This document shows, piece by piece, positions 1 through 63,854 of a DNA stretch of 64,000 nucleotides. Within the stretch, counting starts at the first letter, position 1; every line of letters begins with the position of its first letter. The notes under the pieces were generated by a model that did not search any database, was not told where the DNA came from, and worked only from the letters and a program-made list of their open reading frames with translations. Source of the DNA: a virus; the IMG/VR virus record IMGVR_UViG_3300031658_000002, positions 1 through 64,000 of that record. The stretch is one strand, 5' to 3'. A program made the position numbers and the translations under genes.

Positions 1-362
1 TCGGTTGCATCCTTTGTTTCAGAAGCTATTGTATATGGGCCTTTTGGTGCGCCTTTCCAATAATCTAGTGTTGATACACTAGCTAATTGCTCTGTCCCTG
101 GTGATTTCAACCAAACAGAAGACTCAGTGATGAGCTTATCGCCAGCAAGTATCTTGCCTATTTCAACGCAAAGTTCTTGAAAGTCTTTTGTAGGTGTACT
201 AGGGTTTGAAATACTTTTAATATATTCTGCTATGAACTCTTCAGAATATTTGTGATCTCGAAGTGTTGCCTCGAGTAACTCAAGATGGTTTCTATTTTTT
301 GGATCAGGCATTCCATCGTTAACTCTGTAGGCCCAATCTGTGATTAAATAATTTATGTCCAT
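1..362 (-). CDS. Hypothetical protein, runs off the window edge (MDINYLITDWAYRVNDGMPDPKNRNHLELLEATL...), possibly a head-associated/internal protein
   Basis: Not in the ORF track; read by hand from ATG at 362. AAAGGA SD and TATTTATA motif upstream; contains an LITE (L/I-x-E) site. Confidence 0.75.
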   Translation of the reverse strand, partial: MDINYLITDWAYRVNDGMPDPKNRNHLELLEATLRDHKYSEEFIAEYIKSISNPSTPTKDFQELCVEIGKILAGDKLITESSVWLKSPGTEQLASVSTLDYWKGAPKGPYTIASETKDAT

Positions 363-379
363 AGTATTCCTTTTATCTA

Positions 380-387
380 TATAAATA
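380..387 (-). promoter_or_regulatory. Putative late promoter motif TATTTATA (context GATATTTATATA)
   Basis: One of 17 copies found just upstream of minus-strand genes. Confidence 0.65.
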
Positions 388-392
388 TCAAA

Positions 393-1403
393 TTAAAGGT
401 CCAAAGACCTCATATTGTGATAATCTCTGCCTATCTTAAGCTTAGTAGGATAAACCATTAGTTTCTTTATCTCCTTAAGAAGTTCCTTCCCATCATCCGA
501 ACTAACGTCAAATACAAATGCATCGTATACATAGAGAACCATCTTACTAAATTTGTTTTCTAGCATAGCTAAAATGTTTTTTAGATTTTCAGAATTCTTT
601 TCTGTTTCGAAAGCTTGTATAAAGTAGTTGAATAATTTTTGAGGATTCATATCCTTAAAGTTTCTTTTATAAAACCTACGCTTTAAAATTGGTGTTTCTA
701 TATAACCTTTACTATTATAAATATCCCATAACTTAAAAATATATTCGTTAGTCTTTTTAAAATAATCGATGTGTAAAAACTCTTTTGGTATACCTCCATA
801 AAGTATTTGGAAGCTTAATTTTTTAGAGTCATTGTATTGTTCATCTGTAAGATTATCGGTATCAAAGTAAAGTGCACCTAGATATCTATGAAAACTACCT
901 TCTGGCTGTTTTACTCCAATCAATTCTGCTATAAGTCTCAAATGATACGCATCATAATCAAACTCTGCAAGTATTCCGCCTGGATATCTGCTTATATATT
1001 TTGATCTTGTGCCATCTTCTTTATTCAATGCTGCATAATTTGTGCCTTTGTTAGAATTCGAAGGCCTTCCTGTCGAAGTAAAAAGATTATATCTAGTGTA
1101 TTCAGGGCCCGCTTCAGTCCAAAAGCCGCTTTGTTCAATTTTTCTAAAAGTACTAACAACATTATCATTATATGATTGAATCATGGTTTCAGGTACATCA
1201 GGAATCGCATGCGAGATAGCGTCTAGATGATCGATTTCTTCTCTGATCTTGCTTTCAGGTATTATATCATATATGTTATATCTGTTGCTGTATAACCTTT
1301 TATAGAATGTATTTATTGGAGGATCTAAAGTCGATTCGTCTATAGATTTGTTGTTGTGCAGGTAGTGTTTTATCTGCAGTTTATTTCGAAGTTCAGTTAA
1401 CAT
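393..1403 (-). CDS. polA: Minimal family A DNA polymerase (polymerase domain only)
   Basis: TSTGRPS, motif A EFDYDAYHLRL, motif B SKKLSFQILYGG, FNYFIQAFE, motif C LYVYDAFVFD; no recognisable exonuclease domain. Confidence 0.8.
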   Translation of the reverse strand: MLTELRNKLQIKHYLHNNKSIDESTLDPPINTFYKRLYSNRYNIYDIIPESKIREEIDHLDAISHAIPDVPETMIQSYNDNVVSTFRKIEQSGFWTEAGPEYTRYNLFTSTGRPSNSNKGTNYAALNKEDGTRSKYISRYPGGILAEFDYDAYHLRLIAELIGVKQPEGSFHRYLGALYFDTDNLTDEQYNDSKKLSFQILYGGIPKEFLHIDYFKKTNEYIFKLWDIYNSKGYIETPILKRRFYKRNFKDMNPQKLFNYFIQAFETEKNSENLKNILAMLENKFSKMVLYVYDAFVFDVSSDDGKELLKEIKKLMVYPTKLKIGRDYHNMRSLDL

Positions 1404-1404
1404 G

Positions 1405-1439
1405 TATCTAATATAACAAAATTATATGATATATGAAAA
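1405..1439 (-). promoter_or_regulatory. Putative early/middle promoter TTTTCATAT-N10-TTTGTTATATTAGATA abutting the polA ATG
   Basis: Same bipartite motif at identical spacing upstream of bS21 (22165-22199); core also before primase (47521-47536); TATATTAG resembles the Bacteroidota -7 element TAnnTTTG. Confidence 0.6.
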
Positions 1440-2294
1440 TTATGGGAGTTTTATTTTTGGCTTGTAATATAAGTCGACACCACCATCTGTCAAGTATTTA
1501 GCACACCAGTATTCTTCCCTTGCTTCAGCATCCCACTTTTTACAGAACCCTTCTTCGAAAAATCTGCAACCTCCGCAATCCTGTCTAGGAGGTATTATCT
1601 TGTTAAGCTGCTCTGTGTCAGAGTTGCCCAGTTGATATGACATAGGAAGAGGACCTGGTATGAAGTTATTACCTTCTTCTTCTCCATCCTTCTCTTCGTT
1701 TGCGGGATACATTCTACGGCTATCAGGGCCTACTTCTATTCCTTTAAGAAATGCTGGCCATTTCATATGATCAGTAGGTAAAACAAAGTTGCGGATTGTT
1801 CTTATAACTTGTACAGCTTTTAATATTTCTTCGTAGTTAAGCGTTATCCCAAGTGTGGAGAGCTTTAATTTTATTTCTACCCATGCAGCATTTTTATGAT
1901 AAGGTGTACTATTTTTCTTAAAGTATTTGTATTGTTCTTTATCTATCTCACAAACAGACCCTGTGTTTAATATCTCTGCAAAGTATCTAGTATACTCACC
2001 TTTTTCAATTTCTTTTTCTGTAAGTTTGTGAGCAAAAGGCACGGGTTCTATAAAGTCTCTACGGTACTCAGGCTTCAGCTCATCATATAATATCACAGCT
2101 TTCGACATATCGTATGGGTAGAGTTTCATTTCCTTCTGAGTTTTCTTGTTCATCTCCTCACCACCAAATGGTGTACCTACATAAAATACTATAGGGCCAA
2201 TATACTCTTTAAACTCACCTTCGCGGATTTTTATCATCCACTCCTCGCCGGCTGTGAAACCTTTTTTTATATATTTCTTTTTATATACTCTCAT
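1440..2294 (-). CDS. Hypothetical protein with C-terminal four-Cys (HiPIP-like) motif
   Basis: Likely start is ATG 2294 (TAATG overlap with the upstream stop) rather than 2330; C-terminal CGGC-x7-C-x12-C. Confidence 0.6.
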   Translation of the reverse strand: MRVYKKKYIKKGFTAGEEWMIKIREGEFKEYIGPIVFYVGTPFGGEEMNKKTQKEMKLYPYDMSKAVILYDELKPEYRRDFIEPVPFAHKLTEKEIEKGEYTRYFAEILNTGSVCEIDKEQYKYFKKNSTPYHKNAAWVEIKLKLSTLGITLNYEEILKAVQVIRTIRNFVLPTDHMKWPAFLKGIEVGPDSRRMYPANEEKDGEEEGNNFIPGPLPMSYQLGNSDTEQLNKIIPPRQDCGGCRFFEEGFCKKWDAEAREEYWCAKYLTDGGVDLYYKPKIKLP

Positions 2295-4285
2295 TATATC
2301 CTCAACGCAGTTTCTAAACTCGTTGTCCAATCACCTTGACTTACTGAATGTTTGACTCCAGTTACTTGGAACTTGTGCGTTACAGTAATTACTGCAGATG
2401 TCTGATCGGTCACGAAGAGCTGTCCCCAATGTATACCTCCTATACCATCAAAAGTTCCATCAAACCCAATAGGTATTACAGAACCTCCTTGATCAGTGGG
2501 TGGCGCTTGAGCATTCCAGAAAGCTTTCATAGCACCTTTAACTTCGTCGACAGCCTCATCATCTCTGTTGTCAGCTAGTGTTGCCATTGCATCTTGTAGG
2601 ACTGTCTTTAAATCAGCAGGATCTAGAGTTTTAGTCTTCTTAGTACCACCTCCCGATTCGTCGCATCCCTCGCCTGGATTATGTTTTGTACTTAACTCTT
2701 GCTCTCCCATTAAAGTGTCTTTTATATTTACTGCATAGTCAAGATATGCACCTTGAGGCTCATCTGTATTTTTCGCACCTTTTTTCGTCCTTCTCTGTGT
2801 ACCCATCATTATAGAATGTCTTAATGCCTGTGGAATATCAGTGCTCATCCCCCAGCTACGACAAGACGTATTGCCATATATGTTTATCTTTGGTGCAGCG
2901 ACGTCAGGTACAAAGTTTTTATCTATTATTCTCATCGTTGATGGATCATTTGGATCATCTACTAGTTCTAGATTCCAAAACCCTCCACAGACATCGTTGA
3001 CTTTTTTCGCAACCTTTAATACGTATTCATCTATTGTTTTAGAATCTTGAAACGTGTTCCAAAGAAAATATGTATTAAGAAGTATTTTACCTAAGTGTAG
3101 ATAACCACCGCTGAAAACAGCTGCTGGTGCACCATTAGTTCCTTGTGCTTTCTTGATACCGAACGAAGAGCCATTATCACCGCCTGTTGCGTTGTTCCCT
3201 TTCCAATGCTCTCTGCCTGGGATAAGACAAACCCAAGGATCTGCTGAAGCGTATGGCAGCCCTGGAGGAACTTTCATTCTTGATTCTGAACTATCCAATC
3301 TCCACACGTGTTTTCCTGGGAATTTTGCCTGAGGTGTATCTCCGTATACATCTGTTAATGCTGACGCTGCGGAGTGACCATCACTTACAGGTGACATACC
3401 TGATACTATAGAAGACTCCCACCATGCCCAGGTTACATAGTAATTCATTGTTGGAGAACCAAAAAACCCTGTAACATCTTGCCACCAGGTGGTGTCTTCT
3501 TTCGCATCTTCGTCTAAGTTTACAGAGCCACCGCAATAACCGTTAGGTGACCAAGGTGTATTTTCTTGTATATTTCTTTCTGCTACATCTTTTAGTACTA
3601 CTTTCATCCAATTTCCAGAACCGTCACCTTTATCATCATCTTCTTTTCCAGCGCAGCCTGCATTACCTTTGTTTGCAACATCAATAGGGCCGCTAATGTA
3701 CGCCTTGCCTGGAGAATCTAATGTCAATTCGCAGGAGTAAGATTTAGAGCCCGGGTCAAATGACCAATTGAAGTCTGATATTATTCCTAGCATTGCATCC
3801 ATACCACCATTATTTGCTGCTATCTTTGCAACTACATCCTTCTGACCTTCACTAAAGCTCTTTATTGAAGTCGTGGAAAGTCTAGTCACAGGACTGCCGT
3901 CACTTGTCATATTCCAGCCCCACTGTACTAGTGCTGTAATACCCGGTATGAAGAATGCTTGCTGAGCCTCTTTCAATTGGTCTGTTGAATATAGTGTAAA
4001 TTTAACTTTACCTTTTCTCATAGATCCATTAGTACCAGTCGAGTTGACATCAACTGAATTTAATGTGGGTGCTGCCACTAATCTACCAGATGCGGCTTTA
4101 TCGTAAAAATCTGCTTGTGTTCTTTTCTCGTATCCTGCTATTGTCATAGGTTTGCTAGAAAAAGATACTAACGACATCCAGGGTTTTTTAGAAACTTTCC
4201 AAGCACTGTTCGGGGAAACTGCCCCTCTAGCATTTATTTCAGTTACGGAAGCGGCAGGCATCGATACACCAGTTAAATAACTCAT
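2294..4285 (-). CDS. Baseplate hub protein (gp27/late control D-like)
   Basis: Follows tape measure, tube initiator and LysM genes; C-terminal FQVTGVKHSVSQGDWTTSLET typical of hub proteins. Confidence 0.6.
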   Translation of the reverse strand: MSYLTGVSMPAASVTEINARGAVSPNSAWKVSKKPWMSLVSFSSKPMTIAGYEKRTQADFYDKAASGRLVAAPTLNSVDVNSTGTNGSMRKGKVKFTLYSTDQLKEAQQAFFIPGITALVQWGWNMTSDGSPVTRLSTTSIKSFSEGQKDVVAKIAANNGGMDAMLGIISDFNWSFDPGSKSYSCELTLDSPGKAYISGPIDVANKGNAGCAGKEDDDKGDGSGNWMKVVLKDVAERNIQENTPWSPNGYCGGSVNLDEDAKEDTTWWQDVTGFFGSPTMNYYVTWAWWESSIVSGMSPVSDGHSAASALTDVYGDTPQAKFPGKHVWRLDSSESRMKVPPGLPYASADPWVCLIPGREHWKGNNATGGDNGSSFGIKKAQGTNGAPAAVFSGGYLHLGKILLNTYFLWNTFQDSKTIDEYVLKVAKKVNDVCGGFWNLELVDDPNDPSTMRIIDKNFVPDVAAPKINIYGNTSCRSWGMSTDIPQALRHSIMMGTQRRTKKGAKNTDEPQGAYLDYAVNIKDTLMGEQELSTKHNPGEGCDESGGGTKKTKTLDPADLKTVLQDAMATLADNRDDEAVDEVKGAMKAFWNAQAPPTDQGGSVIPIGFDGTFDGIGGIHWGQLFVTDQTSAVITVTHKFQVTGVKHSVSQGDWTTSLETALRI

Positions 4286-4656
4286 ATATTGCGCTCTTCC
4301 AGCATTTTGTTGTAATCATCTATAATCTCAGGTATTCTATCAGGATGCGGTATTCTTATCCTCTGGCCTGGTTTTACGTACATAGACCCTTTGCCAATTC
4401 CTTCTTTCATACTCTTAGTTATACCATATTGAGATGCTCTGTCAAGCTTGTTTCCATTTGCTATCACCCACCAAAGAGTTACATCTTCATAATATTGGTA
4501 CGCTAAATTATCTAATCTGTCTTCCTGTATAATATCTATATAAAAATCTTCAACGCGTCTTTCTATCTTAGGATATATTATTGTCGAAAATACTTTTTTT
4601 ATCTTGCCGTTAAACCTTTCGGTCATCTTTGTTTGATTTTGATTATATCGTTTCAT
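4282..4656 (-). CDS. LysM/tail-X-like baseplate protein (gp53-like)
   Basis: EDRLDNLAYQYYEDVTLWWVIANGN...PGQRIRIP LysM-type signature. Confidence 0.8.
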   Translation of the reverse strand: MKRYNQNQTKMTERFNGKIKKVFSTIIYPKIERRVEDFYIDIIQEDRLDNLAYQYYEDVTLWWVIANGNKLDRASQYGITKSMKEGIGKGSMYVKPGQRIRIPHPDRIPEIIDDYNKMLEERNI

Positions 4657-4659
4657 TTT

Positions 4660-7431
4660 TTATGCCCAAATTTCATCGTTAAAGAATTTACCTCCTGACT
4701 GCCAAATTGTTCCATCTGCGTTAACTAAGAACTTACCAGATAGTTTTATGTCGAATAACATTGGCAATTCGTGGCCTGATGTTTCTTTGCCGTCACCATG
4801 ATTTATATCCCAACCTGCGTCCAAATTCACTGTGTAGTCAAATGAATCTACGATACAAGGTACTTCCTGCCAGAGCGAACCGACAGTAATATTCTGTATT
4901 CTACCTCCACCTACACCACTGTACATCTTGGGAGATACGTAGCCCATAATATCATTCATAATTTTATAATTATTCTTTAATTCTCCAGATGTAAATGCTG
5001 GCATAGTAAGACTCAAGCTCCATTCCCTGGATATTTTGTCGAACATATACGCATCAACAGGGTTACCTGCATAAGATATTGTTGAATATGTCGGCTTAAG
5101 GCCATCTGATATTTCTGTAATATATGCACGAAGTGCAATATCGCTATTAAATCTAATTTTTACATAGTCACTATCATAATTAGTATCGTCTTCTGATTCA
5201 CCTGGCTTTGTAACACCGTAGTCTTTTATACCTATCCTTGATACTGAATTTCCATCGTAAGAATCTCCATCATCTTTCTTTCTAAAATCCCTAAATGCTT
5301 TTGGAGCTCTTCTGTAGTTACCTATGTCTACGTGACCGAATACATCAAATGTCTTATCGCCGCTACCTGGTGCTATTTCTCCGCTGTTTGGTAGTGACGT
5401 ATGAAACAGTTCATCTCCTGTGTTTCGCTTAGCGGTTGGAGCTCCTTTGTTATCTGCATCTGTTCCGAACTTAGATTGATCAAAGCTTTCAAGATCAGGG
5501 TTTCCATACTTGTCATCTCCAGCATCGTTCCCAATCTTATCGTGTATTTCGTCGTAATTTCTTGTTGTATATTTTCCAGTGTTTACTCCTGCTGGATCTA
5601 TATTACCTAAGCTTGATGGGAAACCTTTCCAACTGTCCGGTGTGTCTTGCACAGATGTCTGATAGCCATTGTCGCCTTTGAATGTGAGTATACCTAAAGA
5701 AAGATCTTCATTTTCTTCACCTTTTTGAGCCTCAGATACTTTGCCATCGTCGTAGTGAGTTGTTGCTTTTTGTTTATAGTAAGGTTCCCCTGGAGTATAT
5801 AGGAATAAGCTTTCTAATCTTCTACCAGATGTATGTTTGTACATTGTAGATTGGCCGATACCAAAGAAAGAATGGGGGCCCATCACACCTGAAAGTCTTT
5901 TTATGGGCTCGCCTTTACCTCTCATCTTAGCCATCATAGTTGTAAACTTAGTGTACAGCATTTCTAAGCCTTTTAACTTCTGAGGCATTAAACCTTTTTT
6001 AGGATTCTTAAACAATCCAACCTCCATATCTTCACCTAGTTTAACAAGTCTATTACTATCACCGGGGCTTGAAGGGTTTAGATTTTCTATTGATCCTACT
6101 ATCTTTTCGTAAGTTATATCTCTAGTGTTTAACTGGCCCAAGAAATGTCTGTCGCCGTGTATACCTAAAGCGCTTAACGGAACTTGTAGGGCTAGAGCTA
6201 AGGGATTGTATATTCTATCAGCATTTGGCAGACCTAGTTGCCAAAACTGTTTTTTAGGGTTTGTTGCCTGAAGTCCGAATTGCTTTAGGTTGAAAAATAA
6301 ACCATCTGGACTTATCATATACTTCGCTATTCTTACAGCATCAATTACAGGTGCTGTTAATGCGTTTATTCTTTCAAACAAGCCTGATGGATTATCCTTA
6401 CCTCTCTGTATACCTCGCTGTATAAACGGAGATTTAAGCCACAATGGAGATCTTGGGTTATTTCTTTCAGCTTCAGTGCGTATATCTACAAAATCGTTTT
6501 TACCTACTTTCTTATAAAACATATCAGCCTGATCGTTAGATATTCTCATACTTCTAATGTTATCAGTTACTCCTGCAGGTACAGAGTCATTTCCAGTCCA
6601 GGGATCATCAGTAGGTCTTACTCTTGCAAAATACTTATTATATTGTAATCTTGTAAATGTACTTGATGATCCACCTTGTGGAAGTGTTTCACTAAACATA
6701 AATTTAGAAGTACCATCGCGCTTATCAGGCTGTGGGTCAATCTGTAAAAAGCCTGATGTCATATTGTTCATATGATTGATTTTTGGAGAACCTTGTGCAG
6801 AAAATATAGGTGTTCTATCACTTGGGCCTAGACTTGCAAAGAGCTCTAAAAGAGCTGTCATCTTTTCCGGTGTCTTAGCCATAGGCATTAAAGGATTTTG
6901 AGTAGACTTTAACGGTGTTTCGGCCATAGGAGTCAAGGGGATTGCTGTTGATTTTCCTGGCGTAGCACCAAAAGGTCTTGGTGGTACTGTTGATTTTTCT
7001 GGTGTGCTACCAAATGGTCTAGGTGATATTGTTGATTTTTCAGGTGTACCAACCAAGGGAGTAATAGGATTTTGAGTACTATAATCAACGCCATTCTGAT
7101 CCATGTTAGGCTCTTGAGTAGAAAAATCTATAGACTTATCAAATGGCTTTGGTGACTGAGTAGAAAAGTCTACTTTGTTCTGGTCTGTATTTATTTTTTG
7201 AGTAGAAAAGTCTACTTTATTCTGCTTTGTATTTATTTTTTGAGTAGAAAAGTCTGTCTGCTTTTGATCTGTATTTATCTCTTGTGTCGGGGATTCATCT
7301 CGCTGACTAAACTGCTGCTGTATGGGTTTGGGTGTAAATTTGCCCAATGGGTTTACACTAGTCCCTACAGGCTGCTTGTTTTTCTCGCTCTGTAAAAAGT
7401 ATTGTTCTAGATTTTTAAATTTGAATGCCAT
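4660..7431 (-). CDS. Baseplate/tail tube initiator (gp48/gp54-like C-terminal domain) with long repetitive N-terminus
   Basis: C-terminal LRAYITEISD...YAGNPVDAY...REWSLSL...ITVGSLW...ELPM tube-like domain; position between tape measure and LysM genes. Confidence 0.55.
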   Translation of the reverse strand: MAFKFKNLEQYFLQSEKNKQPVGTSVNPLGKFTPKPIQQQFSQRDESPTQEINTDQKQTDFSTQKINTKQNKVDFSTQKINTDQNKVDFSTQSPKPFDKSIDFSTQEPNMDQNGVDYSTQNPITPLVGTPEKSTISPRPFGSTPEKSTVPPRPFGATPGKSTAIPLTPMAETPLKSTQNPLMPMAKTPEKMTALLELFASLGPSDRTPIFSAQGSPKINHMNNMTSGFLQIDPQPDKRDGTSKFMFSETLPQGGSSSTFTRLQYNKYFARVRPTDDPWTGNDSVPAGVTDNIRSMRISNDQADMFYKKVGKNDFVDIRTEAERNNPRSPLWLKSPFIQRGIQRGKDNPSGLFERINALTAPVIDAVRIAKYMISPDGLFFNLKQFGLQATNPKKQFWQLGLPNADRIYNPLALALQVPLSALGIHGDRHFLGQLNTRDITYEKIVGSIENLNPSSPGDSNRLVKLGEDMEVGLFKNPKKGLMPQKLKGLEMLYTKFTTMMAKMRGKGEPIKRLSGVMGPHSFFGIGQSTMYKHTSGRRLESLFLYTPGEPYYKQKATTHYDDGKVSEAQKGEENEDLSLGILTFKGDNGYQTSVQDTPDSWKGFPSSLGNIDPAGVNTGKYTTRNYDEIHDKIGNDAGDDKYGNPDLESFDQSKFGTDADNKGAPTAKRNTGDELFHTSLPNSGEIAPGSGDKTFDVFGHVDIGNYRRAPKAFRDFRKKDDGDSYDGNSVSRIGIKDYGVTKPGESEDDTNYDSDYVKIRFNSDIALRAYITEISDGLKPTYSTISYAGNPVDAYMFDKISREWSLSLTMPAFTSGELKNNYKIMNDIMGYVSPKMYSGVGGGRIQNITVGSLWQEVPCIVDSFDYTVNLDAGWDINHGDGKETSGHELPMLFDIKLSGKFLVNADGTIWQSGGKFFNDEIWA
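6850..7290 (-). repeat. Coding tandem repeats: 42-bp/14-aa units (DFSTQKINTxQNKV) followed by 13-14-aa PEKST/Pro-rich units
   Basis: gagta core at 7074, 7116, 7158, 7200 and 7242 (42-bp period; full gagtagaaaagtc at the last three). Confidence 0.85.
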
Positions 7432-7432
7432 A

Positions 7433-10400: not shown

Positions 10401-10933
10401 TCATCATCGTAAATAAGAACTAATGCTTCCTTGTTTGAATTGAAGCCTTCTGCAACTGATACTCTAGCGTTGTCAGCAGCCACCAGTTGATTTGATTTCT
10501 GCAGCTCACCATCAGCCATGACAGACATCTTGCCTTTATTTGTAGCTATAGATTCTATGTTTGAAAGCTTAGAGTTATCAATATCTAAAGCCGTTTTTGC
10601 TTTCTGTAAAATTGAATTTGAAAGAACCGCGAGCTTGGCCTGGTTGTTTAGTGTTGTAGTAGAATTGGAGGCCTTTTCAGCTAATATGGCATTTATCTTA
10701 GTCTGTCTTTGAAAGTCCTTATTAGAATTTTCAAGTATTGTTTCACTGCTAGTCTGAGCTGCTGCTTGTAAAACTGAAATACTCGATTGAAGTGATTCTT
10801 GCTGAGCCAATGCTTTGTTCTGTCTCTGAAGTGCCTGTTCGCGCTTCGCATCGTTTGCTGCAGCCCTTGCTGATGACTTTGCAATCTTATCGTAGTACTC
10901 TTGATTCTTTTTAGGTTGTTTATCGCCTGCCAT
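7433..10933 (-). CDS. Tail tape measure protein
   Basis: 1166 aa, Ala/Gly/Met-rich and helical, hydrophobic C-terminal repeats; downstream of tube and chaperone genes. Confidence 0.85.
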   Translation of the reverse strand: MAGDKQPKKNQEYYDKIAKSSARAAANDAKREQALQRQNKALAQQESLQSSISVLQAAAQTSSETILENSNKDFQRQTKINAILAEKASNSTTTLNNQAKLAVLSNSILQKAKTALDIDNSKLSNIESIATNKGKMSVMADGELQKSNQLVAADNARVSVAEGFNSNKEALVLIYDDELQKSKLLLTVDNARVASVEATSDALKRIALTKNKSYQLDLQASAIADQRASIEEDIAKFVRDQAVEREKELDPSHKLLEQMQKRKDRQKEITKDFDEYKEKFEDFIDIIQDPSVATGLFIVEMGRQASKFADTMATAGDSMKMSRTQTASMAGEMAGANILGAAFGVSAKQNADSMAGLAEGMGDLNDISASAIVQVSNIARQTGLSEVSAGKLVGHMKLVEGSSVESSKETLKVVSNLARGAGLPIGKVMEDVADNMELTSKFGNISVKELGAMAVQAGKLGTSLSQMSALGDKLMDIDTARASAMELSVLLGRQVNVDKAQQLMYEGKIDESYSEMLKQVGGLEAFGKMDYFQKKATAELMNTTTADLEKQLNKAAGLTESGEKQAGWAATAMETTARMGGYLKENATTIAATTNLLGSGVKALGGFAPALKGMGGKVVDKLKGSKLGGALGHGKDKAGDMADMGKKQMKSSDKLGAGGKKGGIKKKMQDLAAGLRSMGKGTFKGILALALAGPALLMALPSIPFLLFMGMVPLAMLATNFKFLASGLKSLGKGFSSILKGLLVLGLLGVAMIPAAFAFSLLEGVNPLSIIAFSGSLIILGLAAAGMGFLIGPILMGSIALLALGLAIIPAAMAMKQLGGVDPAAIIGFALGLALMGAAVAGMGLMLPFILLGTLSAHALGFAITPAVEALSGLEGIDGNAIIQFGVGLGLIAASVAGMGLMLPFILLGAVSAQALGLAINPAVEALSGLTGVDPAAIIPFSIGLGLIGAAVAGMGLMLPFILLGAMSAQALGMAIAPAAEALGGLTGIDPAAIIPFSIGLGLIAAAVAGMGMMFGAILMGTLGLAAISAVLPQYAQSLGLIPEGLDVLGFATGTAALGLAGIVLIPGALGFTLMAGALTLFAASLLLLVPLMPVLDKLGSLGLFGMEGGGGESKTSEGDTKDKGNEEIINKLDELISVIRAGGKVVMDGKEVGKVIQLASGPIGG
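7760..8700 (-). repeat. 168-bp (56-aa) hydrophobic repeats in the tape measure protein
   Basis: attaaacctaagccaattgagaatggtattattgc at 7923 and 8091; aataaaataaatggcaacataagccccatacc at 8043 and 8211; about 5-6 degenerate GxDPAAII.F..GL.L.AA.VAGMGLMLPFILLG units. Confidence 0.85.
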
Positions 10934-10939
10934 AATCTA

Positions 10940-11227
10940 TCAGTTGTATATATCTAAACGCTTTGCTAACTCATCGGCGTGTTTAATTCCATCCTTTGCA
11001 GCTTCTATCTTGTCCATTAAATCCTCTACTGCTTTCTTGCCTTTTGGGCCAGAAGCTGAAATTCTTTCTAGACTAGCTCTATATCTTTTATCGTTTGATT
11101 TTTTTAGTATGCCTGATATATGGTTTAGTACACCATCTACCACGCCTTCTTTGGTAAGACTATTGTTTTCTGAAAGTTTTTTAGAAATTATCTTTCTAAC
11201 GTATTCCCTTAACTTTTTCTGCTTCAT
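10940..11227 (-). CDS. Small hypothetical protein with basic leader ending in L-S-E
   Basis: GGAG SD and its own TATTTATA motif; N-terminus MKQKKLREYVRKIISKKLSE. Confidence 0.7.
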   Translation of the reverse strand: MKQKKLREYVRKIISKKLSENNSLTKEGVVDGVLNHISGILKKSNDKRYRASLERISASGPKGKKAVEDLMDKIEAAKDGIKHADELAKRLDIYN

Positions 11228-11260
11228 TTATACACTCCAGCTTGCGCTTAATTAGTTTTA

Positions 11261-56268: not shown

Positions 56269-56271
56269 TCC

Positions 56272-57579
56272 TTATCCTCTGTATTGTGCTATATTATCGT
56301 TTTTCAAATAGTAAGGATTATTTTGCTTCTTGTTGAATACTTCTACTTGAGAAAAATCTTTTTTGTAGCCCATCTCTTCCCTATGCCTGTAATATTTTTG
56401 AACGTTGAAGAATGATACTATACCGTCAGAATCAGACCAGTATACAATTGAACCGACACTGTATTTCCAATATCCCATCTTTCTACCATACCCTGGATCT
56501 ATAGTATTTCCTTTCATGGAGTTTTCCTTCACCCACTTTATTTTTTCGTTAGTATTCCAAGGTGTTTTTCCAGGTGTTTTGTCAGGGCTAGCAAGATCAG
56601 CTCTTTCATATGCGTTTGCTTGAGAATTATATTGCATAGGAACCCAAGTCTCTTCTTCTAATATATAATCTTTATATGGTCTTAGCTTTGGATGTTTTTT
56701 ATCAAAGTCGGCAGTTGTTTTTATAGGGGCCCATTCAAATCTTCCAAGCGGTATATTGTTTTCAGCACCACCAGTAAGCTCCACGATCCTTCCGTCTCGG
56801 TATACATTAACATAGTGAGGCATAGTTCTAGTTACACCTTTATCATTTGATATTTCGCAATAATATCTACCTGTTGTAAATCTCTGCACGTTGTCTAACA
56901 AAAGCTTTCTTCCTTTTCCAACTATTTTATTCTGTACATCTGTGTTGAAATTACGCTTTGTATCTGCAGAGAAGTACCAAGTATAATTCATCTTGTCTCT
57001 GTTTTTACGGCCTTTTGCATCCTCATAGTTATATGCGTTTGCAACAAAAACTATTATTCCGTTTGCCCAGCTAGATAATACATGTGTTTCTCCTATATTA
57101 TATGCTAGCTTTCTAGCCCCTCGCTTAAACTCATCTGCTTCGTGATATGTTACGTTTTCATATTCAAATTGATCTACAATAGGTAAGCCGTAATTCGGAT
57201 CCTTCTTCTTAAATAGCTCTTTGAATTCAGTATCAGTGTATGCTTCAGATGTGTCTCTATCAAATATAAATCTTGCAGAAGCTAGCTCTAGTTTCCAGTT
57301 ATCTATACCCTCTCTCGATACTACTATACCAGTTTCGCTTCTTTCGTTTTCTTTGTCTATGTCAAATTCGAACTGATCCCTAAGTTCAAAGTTGGCATCG
57401 GAATACAGATCAGAAGACTTTATACTTGTTGCAGATTTTATAGGACTTATCTTTTTAACCTTTACTTGTATCTGTCTTTCTGGTGTCTTTACAAACTCTA
57501 TTTCGGGAAGAGCTTTTTGTATATTTTTTTTAGCATAATATGCTTTACGTGCCGCAGCTTGTCTTTCTACATTTCCCAT
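56272..57579 (-). CDS. Structural protein with Ig-like domain
   Basis: NYTWY...LLLDNV...TGRYYCEISN Ig I-set-like motif. Confidence 0.6.
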   Translation of the reverse strand: MGNVERQAAARKAYYAKKNIQKALPEIEFVKTPERQIQVKVKKISPIKSATSIKSSDLYSDANFELRDQFEFDIDKENERSETGIVVSREGIDNWKLELASARFIFDRDTSEAYTDTEFKELFKKKDPNYGLPIVDQFEYENVTYHEADEFKRGARKLAYNIGETHVLSSWANGIIVFVANAYNYEDAKGRKNRDKMNYTWYFSADTKRNFNTDVQNKIVGKGRKLLLDNVQRFTTGRYYCEISNDKGVTRTMPHYVNVYRDGRIVELTGGAENNIPLGRFEWAPIKTTADFDKKHPKLRPYKDYILEEETWVPMQYNSQANAYERADLASPDKTPGKTPWNTNEKIKWVKENSMKGNTIDPGYGRKMGYWKYSVGSIVYWSDSDGIVSFFNVQKYYRHREEMGYKKDFSQVEVFNKKQNNPYYLKNDNIAQYRG

Positions 57580-58748
57580 TATCTAGTCACCTTGAATATA
57601 TCTTTAATTGGATAGTAACCAATTATATCTGTCGTACTTCCTTTTGCTTTAAGCTTTATTTCTATCTGGTAATATCTTTCAGGTGATAGATTTGATGTAA
57701 AAACTTCAAAGTAGTTACCATTTGAATCACAGCTGATTTTAGTAAAGGTATCGTCATAAGGTATTACAGTTTCTCCTGTCCTAAGGTCTTTAACTGAATA
57801 GAATGCTGAACCAGAGGGCATATACTTAACCTTCAGCTCTGCTGAGGTATTCCCATATGTCTTTGCAGGATATTTTTCTCTACCTATAATTCTGAACTTA
57901 GCTTTTTCGCCTAATTTGTAATCTGCTCTGTTGTTTTTTAGATACATAAATATAGATGAAGGGTCATCTGTTGATAGTTCAGATAGACCAGTGGTTACAA
58001 ACTTAGAATCATCCCAGCAGAATTCTAAACGAGGCTGATATATTGTATGCGTCTCTGTAGAGTAATATTTAAAACTGCCCTGTTTGTTTACATCGGCTTC
58101 TATTGCGTCTGGCCTTTTTATTAAAAAGCCATTGTTTTTTATATGATCTAAACCGTTAACACCTGAAGACATTGTCATTTTAGTAGTCCAATAAGAAACA
58201 TCTTGTCTTATATCTAAGTTAGCTCCACTTGCAGAAGTGTAACTAGCGAATATGGCAGGGTTGGCTGCTATAGAATGTGTTGAACAACCAGGTTGGTTTA
58301 TGCCAAGATTGTTTTCCCATAGTGACTGACCATACTTTACTGGATAGCTCCAACTAGCACCTTCTGTTACAAGAGGTTTATTGCCTACTCTACCAATACC
58401 CACATTCCATGATTGTGATACTGCTTTAATCTCTAACTTGTCATCCAAAGCCAGGCTTTCATCTTTATTTGCTGAATATATTCTTACGAACGTTGTTGGT
58501 GGTGAAAACTTAGTACCGTCAGGATTTTTAAATGTGTTTACAGTATCAGACCCAGAGTACATAGTAAGAGGTATATCAAACTTTACTATAAATCTAGAAT
58601 TGAAGGGACCTGCACCTAATGACCCTGACATGTCTTTATTTATTTCCAGTATCTCATCTATGCCTGCATTCATGCTCGAAGAGAATGGGCCTTCTTTCAC
58701 TTTTTCGTATAATGTTGTGTCAGCTGATGCTGTTATTGAATATATCAT
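57579..58748 (-). CDS. Baseplate-associated structural protein (beta-sandwich, DNRLRE-like)
   Basis: ASADTTLYE, SRFIVKFD, SW..G.G, NNGFLIK, YSTETHTIYQPRLEF. Confidence 0.55.
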   Translation of the reverse strand: MIYSITASADTTLYEKVKEGPFSSSMNAGIDEILEINKDMSGSLGAGPFNSRFIVKFDIPLTMYSGSDTVNTFKNPDGTKFSPPTTFVRIYSANKDESLALDDKLEIKAVSQSWNVGIGRVGNKPLVTEGASWSYPVKYGQSLWENNLGINQPGCSTHSIAANPAIFASYTSASGANLDIRQDVSYWTTKMTMSSGVNGLDHIKNNGFLIKRPDAIEADVNKQGSFKYYSTETHTIYQPRLEFCWDDSKFVTTGLSELSTDDPSSIFMYLKNNRADYKLGEKAKFRIIGREKYPAKTYGNTSAELKVKYMPSGSAFYSVKDLRTGETVIPYDDTFTKISCDSNGNYFEVFTSNLSPERYYQIEIKLKAKGSTTDIIGYYPIKDIFKVTR

Positions 58749-58750
58749 TT

Positions 58751-60673
58751 TTAATATCCTACGATTCTACCTTTAATATCGGTATCTAAATTTTTAACTT
58801 CAAACAGACATGGATCTTGCGAAGGATATACAACTCCATCTCTTGTCGCTCCCTTTATATCATATATGTTTCCACTATATCCAGATGCAATATCAAATAG
58901 GTTAAATATTCTTAAACTCTTAACTGTCTGCACACCTTCCACTTTATCTAGCTCTGTAGCTATATTTGGCAATACTATAGGTTCGTTTATAGACCAGTTA
59001 TCCGGATCAAATATACATCTTAGTTTTTTAACACATCTTAACAATACATCCTTGTTTTGAAAGCCAGGTCTTGGTAAAATACCAAAGTCTACGCCTATGT
59101 TTATTATCCATGCATCTTTTATATTTATTGCATCCGTTAACATTCTATATTGAGAAAGATATGTCTGCATATTCTCTTTAGCTAAAGGTGTTAAAGGTAC
59201 ATAGTTTTTATTGTCATCATAAGTAGCTGTATATAAGTTTAATGCTAATGGATTTTTTATCTCGTGTGTACCTACAGTCTGCATCCAGTATTGTTCATCT
59301 TTATCTAGATAAGCTTTTGCAACTGATCCGTATTTAGCGGGCATTGCATAGATTCTTGCAATATAATCTTCTCTAGTTACAGCTCTGTTCTGTGAGGCAA
59401 AATGTCCAAGAGCGTTCTGTTTAATATCATCTGTTGTCTCTGCCGATCGACCTCCTACTGCTGGTCTTATGTTTATAACAGCTAGCGATTTCTTTACTGT
59501 ATCTAAAGTACCTGCGTTTAATCCATCTTCGTCTAACCATGCTGAAGATTCTATTATTGTGTCAATTTTTCTTGCAGCTACGTTAGAACCTATACCGCCA
59601 CCAGCAATATACTTTACAGTAAGCGTTGTATCTCTAGGTGCCTCCCCATATTGTCTAGTAAACATTGTATTTACAGGATCAAACGCAACATCGATATAAC
59701 TGCTTCCGTTTATAAAATTCTGAGCTGTGTTACCATAAGGTAATGCCATTCCAACATTACTAGGACTAGGAACTATAAGTTCGTCCGGTTGAGTTGAGAT
59801 TCCAGAACCAAACCACAGCTGAGTTATATTATCAGCTTTAACATGTGTTGTAAATCTACGGCCAGTTCTTCTTAATTTAAGAATATACGGAGCGTCATAG
59901 TTATATACAGCCATTGCAGGGTCTGATGTCCAGTTATTTATTACATCTTCAAATATATTGTCTTGTGCAAGATATTCTACTTCACTCCAATTATTACCGT
60001 CAGAATCTTTTACTGACAGTACTGAAACTACGTTGTCTAAGCTTAATGATAGTTTATCAAATTTCTTTGGTGTTGTAAATTCAAAAGTCTCAGTCTCTAA
60101 CTTTCCACTCATAGCACTTACATCTTTTTTCAGCAAATAGTAAGTTGGTTCACCTGATACATTGTCAATTTGATATACAGATGTTTCTGTTGGGTTTCTA
60201 GAACTACTTGAATTAAAGTTTACTGTATCTTGAGTTATGAATTCGTGATCGCCGCTTGTGACTACCATACCTTCGGCTACTTCCATTGCATAAGACATAT
60301 CAGGTCTTCCAGAACTACCTGCTCCAATTGCTGGCACTACTTGATATACTGATAATTCTGCTAATGAAGGTACTGAGGGCTTTACGGAATATCCTAGAGC
60401 TCTTGCTAAGTCTACAACATTATCTCTTTCTTCAGCATGCATCAACAAGCTTTCTTTAAGCTGGTCGTCTACATAGTATGATAAAACATCACCTACGTAT
60501 GATGCCATTTCTATAAACATCATCCCTGGAGAAGACTCATTGAAGTCGTTGTATGTTTCAGGAAAATATGATTTAGCGTAATTAACTAAGTCGCTTCTAA
60601 ATCTTCCAAAATCTTTATTAAGATACTTTATATCTTTTGTTTGTTTTTTATCTATGTTACAATCGTTAGCCAT
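58751..60673 (-). CDS. Baseplate wedge protein (T4 gp6 / baseplate J-like)
   Basis: YLNKDF...YFPETYNDF...GMMFIEMASYVGDVLSYYVD, FGSG, GG.SAET, QNRAVTREDY. Confidence 0.92.
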   Translation of the reverse strand: MANDCNIDKKQTKDIKYLNKDFGRFRSDLVNYAKSYFPETYNDFNESSPGMMFIEMASYVGDVLSYYVDDQLKESLLMHAEERDNVVDLARALGYSVKPSVPSLAELSVYQVVPAIGAGSSGRPDMSYAMEVAEGMVVTSGDHEFITQDTVNFNSSSSRNPTETSVYQIDNVSGEPTYYLLKKDVSAMSGKLETETFEFTTPKKFDKLSLSLDNVVSVLSVKDSDGNNWSEVEYLAQDNIFEDVINNWTSDPAMAVYNYDAPYILKLRRTGRRFTTHVKADNITQLWFGSGISTQPDELIVPSPSNVGMALPYGNTAQNFINGSSYIDVAFDPVNTMFTRQYGEAPRDTTLTVKYIAGGGIGSNVAARKIDTIIESSAWLDEDGLNAGTLDTVKKSLAVINIRPAVGGRSAETTDDIKQNALGHFASQNRAVTREDYIARIYAMPAKYGSVAKAYLDKDEQYWMQTVGTHEIKNPLALNLYTATYDDNKNYVPLTPLAKENMQTYLSQYRMLTDAINIKDAWIINIGVDFGILPRPGFQNKDVLLRCVKKLRCIFDPDNWSINEPIVLPNIATELDKVEGVQTVKSLRIFNLFDIASGYSGNIYDIKGATRDGVVYPSQDPCLFEVKNLDTDIKGRIVGY

Positions 60674-61182
60674 TATAATTCACCTATATCTAGTGCGATT
60701 GACTGCATATCCATAGTGTTACCTTTGAATAAAGACCAATCGATTTTTATGTTCATTCTATTTTCATTTGCTTGCGTAAAATTAACCAGTACGCTTTTAA
60801 GATCTACATAAGGAAGCCATACCGATACTTGTTTTTTTATAAGTTTTTCTAAATCCTCTCTAACAACTTTAGTATTGTTTTCAAACAAAGTCTTGAAAAT
60901 GTCACATCCGAATTCAGGGTGCATTGGTCTCTCACCTCTGTTTGTTAGTACTAAGTTTATTAAATTTGATTTAGTCTGATCGATTGTAGTATAAGACTGT
61001 TTAAAACCTCCACTGTTCTGACCTTTAACACTTGTATTATGAGGTAAAGGTGCCGACATCTTTGTTTCATAGCTGTACCTACGCTCAGCACTAGAATCGT
61101 TAGTAAGAGGTAGAGTAAGACCTATTGCAATGTCTCTTTCAAAATCTAAAGGATTAAATTTATATATAGGTCTTTTTCTCAT
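60673..61182 (-). CDS. Baseplate wedge gp25-like (sheath initiator)
   Basis: NLINLVLTNRGERPMHPEFGCDIFKTLFE...WLPYV. Confidence 0.92.
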   Translation of the reverse strand: MRKRPIYKFNPLDFERDIAIGLTLPLTNDSSAERRYSYETKMSAPLPHNTSVKGQNSGGFKQSYTTIDQTKSNLINLVLTNRGERPMHPEFGCDIFKTLFENNTKVVREDLEKLIKKQVSVWLPYVDLKSVLVNFTQANENRMNIKIDWSLFKGNTMDMQSIALDIGEL

Positions 61183-61571
61183 TACTTAAATCTTTTCACT
61201 AATTCTGAATAATCTCTTGTCAATGCTTTATCTAAACCATCTGGCAAAGCTTGAACATCAACTGGTCTGTTATTCATATCTGTATGTTGTGTAACCCCGC
61301 CTCCTTGCATTGAGGAGAATTTACTTCTTAAACTATCTACTGAAACTTCAGGATAAGGTTCGAATTCAGTCGAAGCTCTTGTCTCGTTAAGTATTTCATT
61401 CAACATAGAATTACTTGTATAGTTTTTTCCTGCGCTTGGTTTTCTTCTTTTCAACACTGGCTTTTTTTGCTCCAACATATTAAGTGCCTCGTTCATTTCG
61501 TTTTGAACAGCTGATTTTATTTCAAGCCTAACAACCTGTTTAATGAGTTTTACTAATTCTTTCTTTGTCAT
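61182..61571 (-). CDS. Hypothetical protein
   Basis: GGAG SD; MTKKELVKLIKQVVRLEI leader; LNEILNET; ALTRDYSELV. Confidence 0.7.
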   Translation of the reverse strand: MTKKELVKLIKQVVRLEIKSAVQNEMNEALNMLEQKKPVLKRRKPSAGKNYTSNSMLNEILNETRASTEFEPYPEVSVDSLRSKFSSMQGGGVTQHTDMNNRPVDVQALPDGLDKALTRDYSELVKRFK

Positions 61572-61593
61572 ATATGTACTCCATTACTTTATA

Positions 61594-61601
61594 TATAAAT
61601 A
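61594..61601 (-). promoter_or_regulatory. Putative late promoter motif TATTTATA
   Basis: Upstream of 61571. Confidence 0.6.
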
Positions 61602-61617
61602 TATAAAAAATACGTTT

Positions 61618-62097
61618 TTACACCCAAGGGCCTGCGGCACCTGATGGTATATTTACCCATGTCCCAGATTGTACCCAAGTGGCTATTGAGTTACCAACAT
61701 TTTGGGCCCAGTCAGTATGGCCTAGTCCGTCCATACCTGCTGAGAATTGAGCTGCTATTGGAGCTTGCATTGGCGGTACTGCAGCATGTAGTGGCAGCAT
61801 CCCTAAAGCCAAAGTGGCATAAAAAACATCTATTGACGCTACTAGCATATCCCCTGCTGAATCATTGCTAGTACTCCAGCCAGCGAGCATCCCGTACATA
61901 GCCCCTTCAGCTGCAGCTATAGTTACAGATGGTGGGAATATTGCTGCTGATGCAAGCTTCATAGATTCAGACCAACCTTTTGCAGTTCCTGGAGATGCTA
62001 CCTCTGAAATATCTCCAGATGCTGGTGAGTATAGCATACTTTCCGAATCAAAGTATTTTGCCATGTTCATTTGAAATATAGGTACTAAAAAAGGCAT
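61618..62097 (-). CDS. Hypothetical protein following the spike gene
   Basis: Likely start ATG 62097 (TAATG overlap), MPFLVPIF...; the longer track ORF overlaps the spike gene. Confidence 0.6.
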   Translation of the reverse strand: MPFLVPIFQMNMAKYFDSESMLYSPASGDISEVASPGTAKGWSESMKLASAAIFPPSVTIAAAEGAMYGMLAGWSTSNDSAGDMLVASIDVFYATLALGMLPLHAAVPPMQAPIAAQFSAGMDGLGHTDWAQNVGNSIATWVQSGTWVNIPSGAAGPWV

Positions 62098-63137
62098 TAT
62101 TGTTGCATCGCTTCCATTTGAGCCTTCAACATTCCGTATACAGCTGCCTGCACTGGTGGAGCTGACATACCACAAGCTGTAGGGTGTGTCTCCATCTCTA
62201 AATTTGTTAACATCTCTAAAACAATATCAGCAAGTGCACTTACGTTTAACTTCCATGATGCAGTTGAAAGACCGATTTCTTTTTTAGCTGAAAGTATTAT
62301 ATTTTCAGTCTTGGAATTGAATACAAGTCTGTCTGAGTTTATTATTACTTGTGAAGTACCTGTATATTCACCTACAGCGACCATAGGTGAAGGTCCTCCT
62401 GAAGGTACTGGTACTGTCTCATCAGCTATAGCGTTTGCAGGTATAAGATCTATCTTCTGAGTCTTTGTTAGCATTATAGTTGAGTCGTTTTCGTTTATAT
62501 CTTCTATATGAGAATCACCCGTATCAGCATGGCCATTTGATATGATCATTATAGGATCTCCGTCTGTACCACCTACCGACCATGTGTTCTCTGGCTTACC
62601 TGCAACTGCAGTTGCGCCAAGTCTAATACTATTATCAAATCTACCTTGCATTACTGTATCGCCTTCATAATGCTGTAGTGGAGCTACCTCTTTTTCTACA
62701 AATGTTTCTCCCAATGTGTCATTGACAAAGTTTTTTGGATTGAATGCTATATTAGGCACAGCATTAGAGTTTATGTCACCCCACATATTAACAACTGACA
62801 GCCAATAGTAACCTGTATCTTTTGGGTTTATCATTGCGCCTAAAGTTGCTGCTCTTAATAAAACTACAACTTCACCTTTGAGTGGATATGATGTTATGTT
62901 TTTATTTAAAGGAGGTATCCAGTGTCCTTGTATCTCGTCTGCAAGAGCATAGTCTACCTGCTCACCTAATAGCTTTACTTTTACATATCCCAAGTCTGCA
63001 CCTGGTGTATCTGTCTTATACCATTGATGGTCTGGATTCATTACGACATCTACAACTTCACCCGATGCTACTGGGGGATTACTAGCTGCATTAGCATTAG
63101 TAAACTTAGCCGAACTTCCTTTATCTCCAAAACCCAT
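62097..63137 (-). CDS. Baseplate central spike (gp5/gpV-like, no lysozyme domain)
   Basis: OB-fold-like GEVVDV...YPLKGEVVVL...YYW; QGRFDNSIRLG; QVIINSDRLVFNSK beta-helix; C-terminal THPT. Confidence 0.65.
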   Translation of the reverse strand: MGFGDKGSSAKFTNANAASNPPVASGEVVDVVMNPDHQWYKTDTPGADLGYVKVKLLGEQVDYALADEIQGHWIPPLNKNITSYPLKGEVVVLLRAATLGAMINPKDTGYYWLSVVNMWGDINSNAVPNIAFNPKNFVNDTLGETFVEKEVAPLQHYEGDTVMQGRFDNSIRLGATAVAGKPENTWSVGGTDGDPIMIISNGHADTGDSHIEDINENDSTIMLTKTQKIDLIPANAIADETVPVPSGGPSPMVAVGEYTGTSQVIINSDRLVFNSKTENIILSAKKEIGLSTASWKLNVSALADIVLEMLTNLEMETHPTACGMSAPPVQAAVYGMLKAQMEAMQQ

Positions 63138-63475
63138 TATTTATTGTCCTCTAAATCCTGGACTGAACTTAATAATTGCTTCTTCTCATCTTCAGTAAGT
63201 AATCCTGTTGAGTTTTCACTCTCAGGTCTTCCCATTGCCCTCTGTACAATTGCAGCCATCTTTATCAAATGCTCATCATTCTTTACACTGACTTCCAAGT
63301 ACTCTTTTATTATCGGTACTAATATTGTTGCATCACCCATATTCTTTATCATGGGCTGCAGCTGTAGTATCAATTCGTTTATCTGTTTTTCTTTCTTTGT
63401 GGAATTGTTGTATATATCTTGGAGTAAACTTTCAAAAGATTTACCTTCAAATATATGATCTTCACTTATTGCCAT
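63137..63475 (-). CDS. Hypothetical helical protein
   Basis: AGGAG SD; IFEGKSF..LLQDIY, VKNDEHLIKMAAIVQR. Confidence 0.7.
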   Translation of the reverse strand: MAISEDHIFEGKSFESLLQDIYNNSTKKEKQINELILQLQPMIKNMGDATILVPIIKEYLEVSVKNDEHLIKMAAIVQRAMGRPESENSTGLLTEDEKKQLLSSVQDLEDNK

Positions 63476-63494
63476 TATCTTTCTCCTATTTATA

Positions 63495-63502
63495 TATAAA
63501 TA
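63495..63502 (-). promoter_or_regulatory. Putative late promoter motif TATTTATA
   Basis: Just after a terminator, at the start of the baseplate operon. Confidence 0.6.
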
Positions 63503-63505
63503 TAC

Positions 63506-63539
63506 AAAACAAAAAACCTGGAGCTTATGCCCCAGGTTT
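63506..63539 (-). terminator. Intrinsic terminator after the small membrane protein gene
   Basis: AAACCTGG...CCAGGTTT stem plus T-tract on the minus strand. Confidence 0.75.
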
Positions 63540-63561
63540 CTTTAAATATAACGATTGTAAT

Positions 63562-63786
63562 TTACTTCTTAATAAAGAATGACCCTACAATTACTAATAC
63601 TACCAACCCTGCAAATCCACCTTGTCCTAGTGAGTTTACAAGAGAGGTTAAGTTAGCAATTACGTCCATTCCAAATACAGTTCCGCCTGTTAAGACAGTC
63701 CATAAGATTGTTACTGGTAAAATTGTCATCATCACTGATAATAATCCACCGAAAAATCCATTTACATATTTGATTACTGAATCCAT
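63562..63786 (-). CDS. Small membrane protein (two hydrophobic helices)
   Basis: GLLSVMMTILPVTILWTVL and GFAGLVVLVIVGSFF; AGGAAG SD-like site. Confidence 0.75.
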   Translation of the reverse strand: MDSVIKYVNGFFGGLLSVMMTILPVTILWTVLTGGTVFGMDVIANLTSLVNSLGQGGFAGLVVLVIVGSFFIKK

Positions 63787-63854
63787 AATTTTCTCTTCCT
63801 TTTCTTTGTTGTTGTTTGGGCATTATTGCCAAGCGCGCAACTTCGTTTAGTTAA

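Follow-up and report, generated by a model that had tools for sequence, protein, structure and literature searches.

Shine-Dalgarno sites on the core genes of a marine T4-like phage that encodes its own ribosomal protein bS21

Introduction

In a marine T4-like myophage, we found canonical Shine-Dalgarno (SD) sites ahead of most of the core genes, together with a gene for the ribosomal protein bS21 that is itself preceded by a leader with no SD; both features are conserved in relatives of the phage, among which bS21 and the use of SD co-occur, with exceptions. The window examined here is the first 64 kb of the linear 78,904-bp IMG/VR virus record IMGVR_UViG_3300031658_000002 (genome label G000), which, at a CheckV completeness of about 45%, represents that share of a genome of roughly 170 kb, and the host of the phage is likely a member of Bacteroidota. 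We give a probability of about 45% to the reading that selection acts on the SD sites and that they function in a host group normally blind to SD, that the phage bS21 makes these sites readable, and that bS21 itself comes from an SD-independent message under a non-late promoter.

Among ribosomal proteins, bS21 is to our knowledge the one that phages carry most often. In Flavobacterium johnsoniae, ribosomes are unresponsive to SD because bS21, bS18 and bS6 hold the anti-SD tail of the 16S rRNA in a pocket (PMC7797042, PMC9976891), where Tyr54, the signature residue of the host bS21, stacks on A1534 (PMC7797042); ribosomes without bS21, moreover, gain SD-dependent translation (PMC9976891). Phage bS21 has been proposed to enter host ribosomes and to favour phage messages late in infection by Chen et al. 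(2022), who mentioned SD in passing and did not analyse the SD sites of phage genes (PMC9723584), and McNutt et al. (2023) only speculated on an exchange of bS21. In the literature that we searched, no paper connecting phage bS21 with SD-bearing phage genes was found.

Results

Each start was scored by the duplex energy of positions -20 to -3 against the 16S tail AUCACCUCCUUUCU. In the late block, which runs from 63.5 kb down to 1.4 kb (n = 46 genes), 61% of the starts reach -6 kcal/mol or lower and 91% reach -4 kcal/mol or lower, while the chance of reaching -6, estimated from random positions and internal ATGs, is 14% (binomial p = 3e-13). The spacing between the GGAG/GAGG core and the ATG is 5-10 nt with a median of 7. 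The purine strings that an earlier inspection of the sequence (hereafter, the original prediction) had read ahead of the structural genes are all present: namely, TAAGGAG at the capsid and protease genes, AAAGGAG at the scaffold and portal genes, TAGGAG at the sheath and tube genes, TGGAGG at phoH, AAAGGAG at both the gene at 11498-12358 and the holin-like gene, and GGAG-type cores at the starts at 7431, 15621, 25027, 37277, 38901, 49916, 51846, 61571 and 63475. Its exceptions also hold, in that GGAG lies 5-7 nt upstream of the TTG start of the Mre11-Rad50 gene, and that most late genes with no SD either overlap the preceding gene in a coupled arrangement (ATGA or TAATG) or, as in TerL, have a promoter motif against the ATG. 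Indeed, the four genes described there as lacking SD (bS21, polA, the primase-like gene and a GIY-YIG gene) have duplex energies of +1.0 to -1.1 kcal/mol, and a comparison of the classes by 16S hybridisation energy separates these four from the late genes (Mann-Whitney p = 0.001). Beyond the window, an accessory block of 18 genes at 69.5-78.4 kb, containing a DNA ligase, a GIY-YIG gene, secreted proteins and small open reading frames (ORFs), has A-rich leaders, of which 11% reach -6 kcal/mol, i.e., the chance level; this block differs from the late genes in SD energy (Mann-Whitney p = 8e-8).

Orthologous bS21 with the same N- and C-terminal extensions was found in 13 IMG/VR loci at 47-68% identity, and the contigs of four of these loci were compared with G000 gene by gene. 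The SD cores of the late genes are retained in the orthologues although the flanking bases diverge; those of the scaffold and capsid genes, for example, are kept in G001-G003, and that of Mre11-Rad50 in G003. The starts with no SD are likewise retained: the bS21 leader is A-rich and SD-less in all 13 relatives, the layout of the polA start, TTGTTATATTA(G/T)ATAC-ATG, is exact in all four, and the primase orthologue in G003 has the identical layout with the motif abutting the ATG. In all relatives, the TerL start is immediately preceded by a late motif (TATTTATATAGGTT-ATG), and the TerL message may be nearly leaderless. The GIY-YIG orthologue in G003 carries AAGGAG, and the absence of SD is therefore peculiar to the G000 gene, which is not a conserved SD-less exception.

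The phage bS21 matches its Pfam family over residues 47-91 with 35 bits (cut-off, 27). Its S21 core (residues 40-98) is flanked by a Lys-rich N-terminal extension and a C-terminal extension with GYVW, and its best match among solved proteins is bS21 of F. johnsoniae (7jil_z), to the KPS motif of which (residues 40-42) the KPS at residues 76-78 is aligned. An AlphaFold2 model predicts helices at 45-61, 64-70 and 77-103 with a mean pLDDT (predicted local distance difference test) of 74; the first and the last of these give the two-helix fold of the family, with a long C-terminal helix after KPS. The position of Tyr54, the signature of the Bacteroidia-type bS21, is occupied by Arg90 in an ungapped HMMER alignment; this Arg is invariant in nine members of the clade, with an aromatic residue four positions (one helical turn) later, and the segment after KPS carries a net charge of +5 to +8 in the clade. 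The gene stands as a unit of its own, flanked by a hairpin with a T-run on one side and by a terminator-like hairpin on the other, and its leader is A-rich and 33 nt long. Two runs of one metatranscriptome sample gave contigs of 90-95% identity that cover mainly the capsid and scaffold genes and are uninformative on bS21, on the starts or on expression levels.

Upstream of bS21, polA and the primase-like gene lies the motif TTTGTTATATTA, which occurs exactly three times in the window, each time just upstream of one of these genes, and twice more beyond it (66884 and 78352). A bipartite element, TATATGTCGGA-N8-TTGTTATATTA, has TTGTTATATT, or TTTGTTATATTA at bS21, as its downstream half; TTGTTATATT is found on the coding strand five times in G000 and 7-12 times in each larger relative. 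A late-type motif, ATATTTATA, is found 24 times on the coding strand of G000, mostly 18-40 nt ahead of late genes, and one copy near 21706 stands ahead of the scaffold and capsid genes. In the polA motif (1409-1420), 6 nt separate TATATT from the ATG, and the primase motif (47525-47536) abuts the ATG in the same way; this six-base gap is shared by seven other genes of the relatives. The spacing between a -10 hexamer and the transcription start is 6-7 nt, and the polA and primase mRNAs, judged solely from the distance between motif and ATG, are probably leaderless.

According to the original prediction, two translation regimes are matched to two transcription regimes. Distinct regimes of initiation do exist, and bS21 does have an SD-less leader under a non-late promoter, but the promoter class does not decide the use of SD. 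When the first gene behind each motif was examined in G000, G001, G003 and G004, SD was found in 24% of the non-late TTGTTATATT class and in 51% of the late class (p = 7e-5); this lower share arises because 12 of the 25 non-late genes have their ATG 6-7 nt past the motif. With leaders longer than 10 nt, SD is present in 46% of the non-late and 60% of the late class, a difference that is not significant (p = 0.06). The gene at 66625-66843 of G000, furthermore, is of the TTGTTATATT class and yet led by GGAG, Mre11-Rad50 is SD-led though co-transcribed with the primase gene, i.e., inside a non-late unit, and two or three genes of the accessory block stand behind late-type motifs with no SD. The notion that the TTGTTATATT class as such has no SD was hence rejected. 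Rather, polA and primase on the one hand and bS21 on the other are SD-less for two different reasons: the former because TTGTTATATT abuts their ATG, and the latter through a long leader. bS21 is the sole gene of the TTGTTATATT class with a long, conserved and SD-less leader.

A comparison with more distant phages was made on 80 loci drawn from IMG/VR by capsid alignment. Because a tblastn search of GenBank phages with the bS21 protein gave zero matches, bS21 was sought with profiles built here, and it was found in 41 of the 80 loci, 1-4 kb upstream of the capsid gene and on the same strand. The use of SD was then compared in 60 loci with at least eight genes and, where bS21 was missing, at least 4.5 kb of upstream cover. 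The median SD fraction is 0.38 (range, 0.11-0.81) in the 40 loci with bS21 and 0.065 (range, 0-0.53) in the 20 loci without it (Mann-Whitney p = 8e-7), with a chance level of 0.14 in both. The same bias in relatives lacking bS21, which would have spoken against the original prediction, is mostly absent: 11 of those 20 loci stand at 0.07 or lower, and Flavobacterium phage vB_FspM_immuto (MW353176), with a complete 160-kb genome and no S21 gene, has about 5% SD-like starts genome-wide, which is below chance. The exceptions are L045 and the L049/L098 clade, in which no bS21 was detected and the SD fraction is 0.2-0.4. Another candidate exception, L100, was rejected as a clean counter-example, given that a rearrangement upstream of its capsid gene has left sugar-nucleotide enzymes there and neither portal nor protease.

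On the capsid tree, clades with and without bS21 interleave, so that at least 6-8 changes are needed, and the SD-free immuto clade is the sister of a bS21-bearing clade with SD fractions of 0.27-0.43. A sign test on independent pairs had too few pairs for significance, and phylogenetic generalised least squares was used instead; the slope ranges over 0.20-0.27 and, at the lambda that fits best (0.9), is 0.20 (p = 0.0012). In G016, a complete genome with bS21, 41% of the homologues of late genes are SD-led as compared with 17% of the other genes (p = 2e-5).

As to the host, the nearest cultured relative by capsid is immuto (46% identity). A 177-aa secreted protein with a signal peptide, encoded beyond the window at 75260-75793 of G000 (L001:12263-12793) among consecutive small secreted proteins whose leaders have no SD, has a type-B sorting domain of the type IX secretion system (T9SS) that scores above the NCBI cut-off. 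Type-A sorting domains end large proteins of two clade members, G002 (1148 aa) and G019, and are also found in the bS21-bearing phages G016 (178 kb) and G017 as well as in immuto, which served as the positive control. T9SS is not known outside Bacteroidota and their close relatives, which makes a host in Bacteroidota likely. The sole bacterial relative of the type-B domain protein (L140/G022, JACSSC010000049) comes from a genome with 111 T9SS type-A domains and adjoins rpsA there. The title of that entry, "Candidatus Competibacteraceae", was rejected as evidence for a gammaproteobacterial host, being contradicted by those 111 domains, and is probably a mislabel of a Bacteroidota-type genome.

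Nearly all genes of the record are on the minus strand. Profile searches gave the gene set of a T4-like myophage, namely TerL, a T4-type portal, prohead protease S77, the major capsid protein, sheath, tube and gp25, in addition to a tail fibre with an endosialidase chaperone, PhoH, a Mre11-Rad50 fusion, GIY-YIG endonucleases, a Toprim primase-like protein and a piece of a family-A polymerase (Table 1). Matching DNA is present in marine metagenomes, and a megablast search of GenBank phages with 20 kb of the record gave zero matches.

Table 1. Positions of the genes and of the bS21 promoter-like motif in the window
Feature	Position	Strand	Remarks
Phage bS21 gene, 117 aa	21783..22136	-	Pfam PF01165
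TTTGTTATATTA promoter-like motif of bS21	22169..22180	-	kept ahead of bS21 in 11 of 13 related loci
DNA polymerase A piece (polA)	393..1403	-	Pfam DNA_pol_A, PHROG 17; no SD
Primase-like (Toprim) gene	46608..47519	-	Toprim_3 match weak, under cut-off; no SD
Mre11-Rad50 fusion, TTG start	43472..46618	-	Metallophos and AAA_23 domains; start overlaps end of primase gene
SegE-type GIY-YIG homing endonuclease	47550..47990	-	PF19835, E = 1e-31; no SD
Scaffold and major capsid gene	18995..21582	-	PHROG 138; AAGGAG-type SD on both; likely scaffold start 21576
Head module: TerL, T4-type portal, prohead protease S77, hypotheticals	22241..30410	-	SD on all except TerL (28833-30410)
PhoH, neck, sheath, tube, baseplate-hub-like and large tail genes	4282..18889	-	mostly SD-led: GGAGGT, AGGAG, AAGGAG, AGGAGG
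Rest of late block: holin-like, kinase, tail fibre with endosialidase chaperone, gp25, large structural genes	30448..63475	-	mostly SD-led, many behind ATATTTATA

The longest-ORF starts of four genes look wrong, and three of them were re-set from orthologue alignments. Orthologues place the start of the gene at 15645-16460 at ATG 16451, preceded by GAGAGGTGGA, that of the gene at 1440-2330 at ATG 2294, preceded by GAGGA, and that of the gene at 31440-33755 at ATG 33722, in an ATGA overlap with the kinase gene. In the scaffold gene (20650-21582), the second ATG, at 21576, fits better than the first. The kinase, a P-loop protein of the Zeta-toxin/AAA_33 type at 33719-34420, is coupled through the ATGA to a 771-aa protein downstream, and its version in G001 has a start that adjoins the late motif, with no SD. 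In the accessory block, a stretch of about 50 nt that comprises a late-type motif and a leader rich in A occurs twice, at 74350 and 72656 of G000, ahead of two different places. A permuted (two-piece) transfer-messenger RNA (tmRNA) with the tag GEHVEMAMAA is also encoded beyond the window at about 69193-69537 (L001:6193-6537), on the basis of the permuted flag of ARAGORN and 57.8 bits to Rfam tmRNA_permuted (cut-off, 47); the GGAGG directly upstream of the gene at 68358-69209 may be part of this tmRNA and not an SD.

Discussion

Translation in this phage would start in three modes: namely, a canonical SD on the majority of core genes, and particularly on those of the virion; host-style, A-rich and SD-less leaders on the phage bS21 gene and the accessory block; and promoter-abutting, probably leaderless starts on polA, primase and TerL. 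With slightly less confidence than in the reading given at the outset, we suggest that the phage bS21 is a switch that lets SD-blind Bacteroidota ribosomes read SD and so opens a private channel for SD-led phage messages, SD in this phage group being kept only together with bS21 and repeatedly lost with it. The bS21 gene would be transcribed from its non-late promoter, and the message would be translated by unmodified, SD-blind ribosomes. The phage protein would then occupy the bS21 site of host 30S subunits and leave the anti-SD free, so that SD-led phage messages could outcompete the SD-less messages of the host at the time of high demand for virion proteins.

Several points weigh against such a role of bS21. 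While the SD pattern and its conservation, the bS21 gene, the leader of that gene and the joint occurrence of bS21 and SD across relatives were observed directly, we infer the host, the incorporation into ribosomes, the release of the anti-SD, the timing and the causal role of bS21. Across the 41 loci with bS21, the use of SD is not predicted by whether the Tyr54 position is aromatic (p = 0.13) or by the C-terminal charge (rho = 0.15); phages with a Tyr54-type bS21 such as L083 have a clear AAGGAG on the scaffold and capsid genes. With no such correlation, the change from Tyr54 to Arg and a more basic C-terminal tail were rejected as the cause of SD use. L112 and L064 have bS21 with SD fractions of only 0.11-0.14, L045 and the L049/L098 clade are exceptions in the other direction, and the enrichment of SD in late genes is not significant in G018, another complete genome with bS21. 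Most of the contigs are fragments, and the absence of bS21 is therefore uncertain; gene starts, furthermore, follow the longest-ORF rule. Finally, a phage of the bS21-bearing "KK" clade of IMG/VR has been deposited with a cyanobacterial host, Microcystis (L113, PP395634, "Microcystis phage Mel-JY01").

This last phage is central to an alternative that we consider unlikely, though it deserves serious attention: the host, either a T9SS lineage outside the SD-blind Bacteroidia or a member of another phylum, might read SD natively. SD-led genes would then be the norm, bS21 would mark the host range and not the use of SD, and the SD-less genes would comprise leaderless genes, accessory genes of recent acquisition and a copy of bS21 that resembles the host protein. 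Mel-JY01, with 72% capsid identity to the "KK" clade and rpsU in the same slot, has SD on 56% of its structural genes and so fits this idea, as do two further findings: SD is used on many non-structural genes in the present clade, and the Tyr54 status has no bearing on the use of SD. T9SS sorting domains are, nonetheless, present in this clade and in three other bS21-bearing clades, as they are in immuto, and the SD-rich clades with bS21 are sisters to SD-free clades on the capsid tree. It is also difficult to reconcile native reading of SD with the 18-gene block and bS21, which use Bacteroidota-type, A-rich and SD-less leaders in the same genome, or with the placement in Bacteroidetes of bS21 myophages of the same gene context (PMC9723584). 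G017, a contig of the clade of Mel-JY01, has a T9SS sorting domain; either members of that clade infect more than one phylum, or the host given for Mel-JY01 should be checked.

A further and somewhat less probable alternative is that the SD sites work but that bS21 is not what enables them. Infection might raise the share of bS21-free ribosomes, which in F. johnsoniae are the ones that gain SD-dependent translation, or another phage factor might act; the co-occurrence of bS21 and SD would then reflect shared descent, or bS21 might top up ribosomes or counter a defence. Exceptions to the co-occurrence in both directions and sequence features of bS21 that do not track SD strength are compatible with this alternative. 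So are the bS21 genes themselves, about half of which in other clades (L099, L082, L062, L055 and others) are led by SD, namely AGAGGTTAC or AAGGTT, like the host rpsU of Flavobacteriales, while those of the present clade and of the Tyr54-type clades have none. This alternative, however, is countered by the association surviving phylogenetic correction, and losses of bS21 accompany SD-free genomes in several separate clades. That the purine motifs are compositional or transcription signals is very improbable: many cores do lie a few bases downstream of ATATTTATA motifs, but the same cores stand 5-10 nt from the ATG of internal operon genes with no promoter, occur there four times as often as at random positions or at internal ATGs, and are conserved in orthologues.

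In Bacteroidota, it is bS21 that determines if ribosomes see SD, and the scarcity of SD in most relatives with no bS21 gives the phage protein a testable job. Three things come together in this genome and its relatives: SD on core genes in a host group that ignores SD, a bS21 gene with no SD, and SD-free relatives with no bS21. Should the proposed switch be true, a virus would be altering which messages the host ribosome selects, and the switch could be used for orthogonal translation. New in this study are the phylogenetic regression and the T9SS evidence on the host across clades, and also the division of SD-less genes into a leaderless-like and a long-leader kind, with promoter class not being the deciding variable.

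The freshwater Bacteroidetes myophages of Chen et al. (ISME Commun 2:31) resemble the present phage in having bS21 within the TerL-portal-protease-capsid cluster, one or two genes from scaffold/capsid, and a T4-like virion module, with a Bacteroidota host being likely here. Their bS21 is on the reverse strand, whereas it is on the same strand as its neighbours here and in the 41 related loci; the N- and C-terminal extensions of bS21, Arg in place of an aromatic residue at the Tyr54 position and the marine habitat also set the present phage apart. The contig identifiers of our relatives were not found in those supplements of Chen et al. (PMC9723584) that were checked. Immuto is alike in the order of head and tail genes, the late motif TATTTATA and a T9SS-tagged protein, but differs in having no S21 gene and few SD-like starts.

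In terms of promoters, the scheme resembles that of T4, with an AT-rich late motif and a bipartite non-late motif that has an upstream box; the late motif here, as read from the sequence, is nonetheless TATTTATA on the coding strand and not TATAAATA. The -10-like hexamer that stands 6 nt from the ATG is placed as at lambda pRM, from which the leaderless cI mRNA arises. As in the anti-SD sequestration and rpsU autoregulation of F. johnsoniae (PMC7797042, PMC9976891), finally, it would be the bS21 family that governs the pairing of the 16S tail with SD, and the reading of an SD-bearing message would depend on the bS21 state of the ribosome. In that host, however, a strong SD is found on rpsU only, as part of a homeostatic circuit, whereas in this phage dozens of genes are led by SD and the bS21 gene itself has none.

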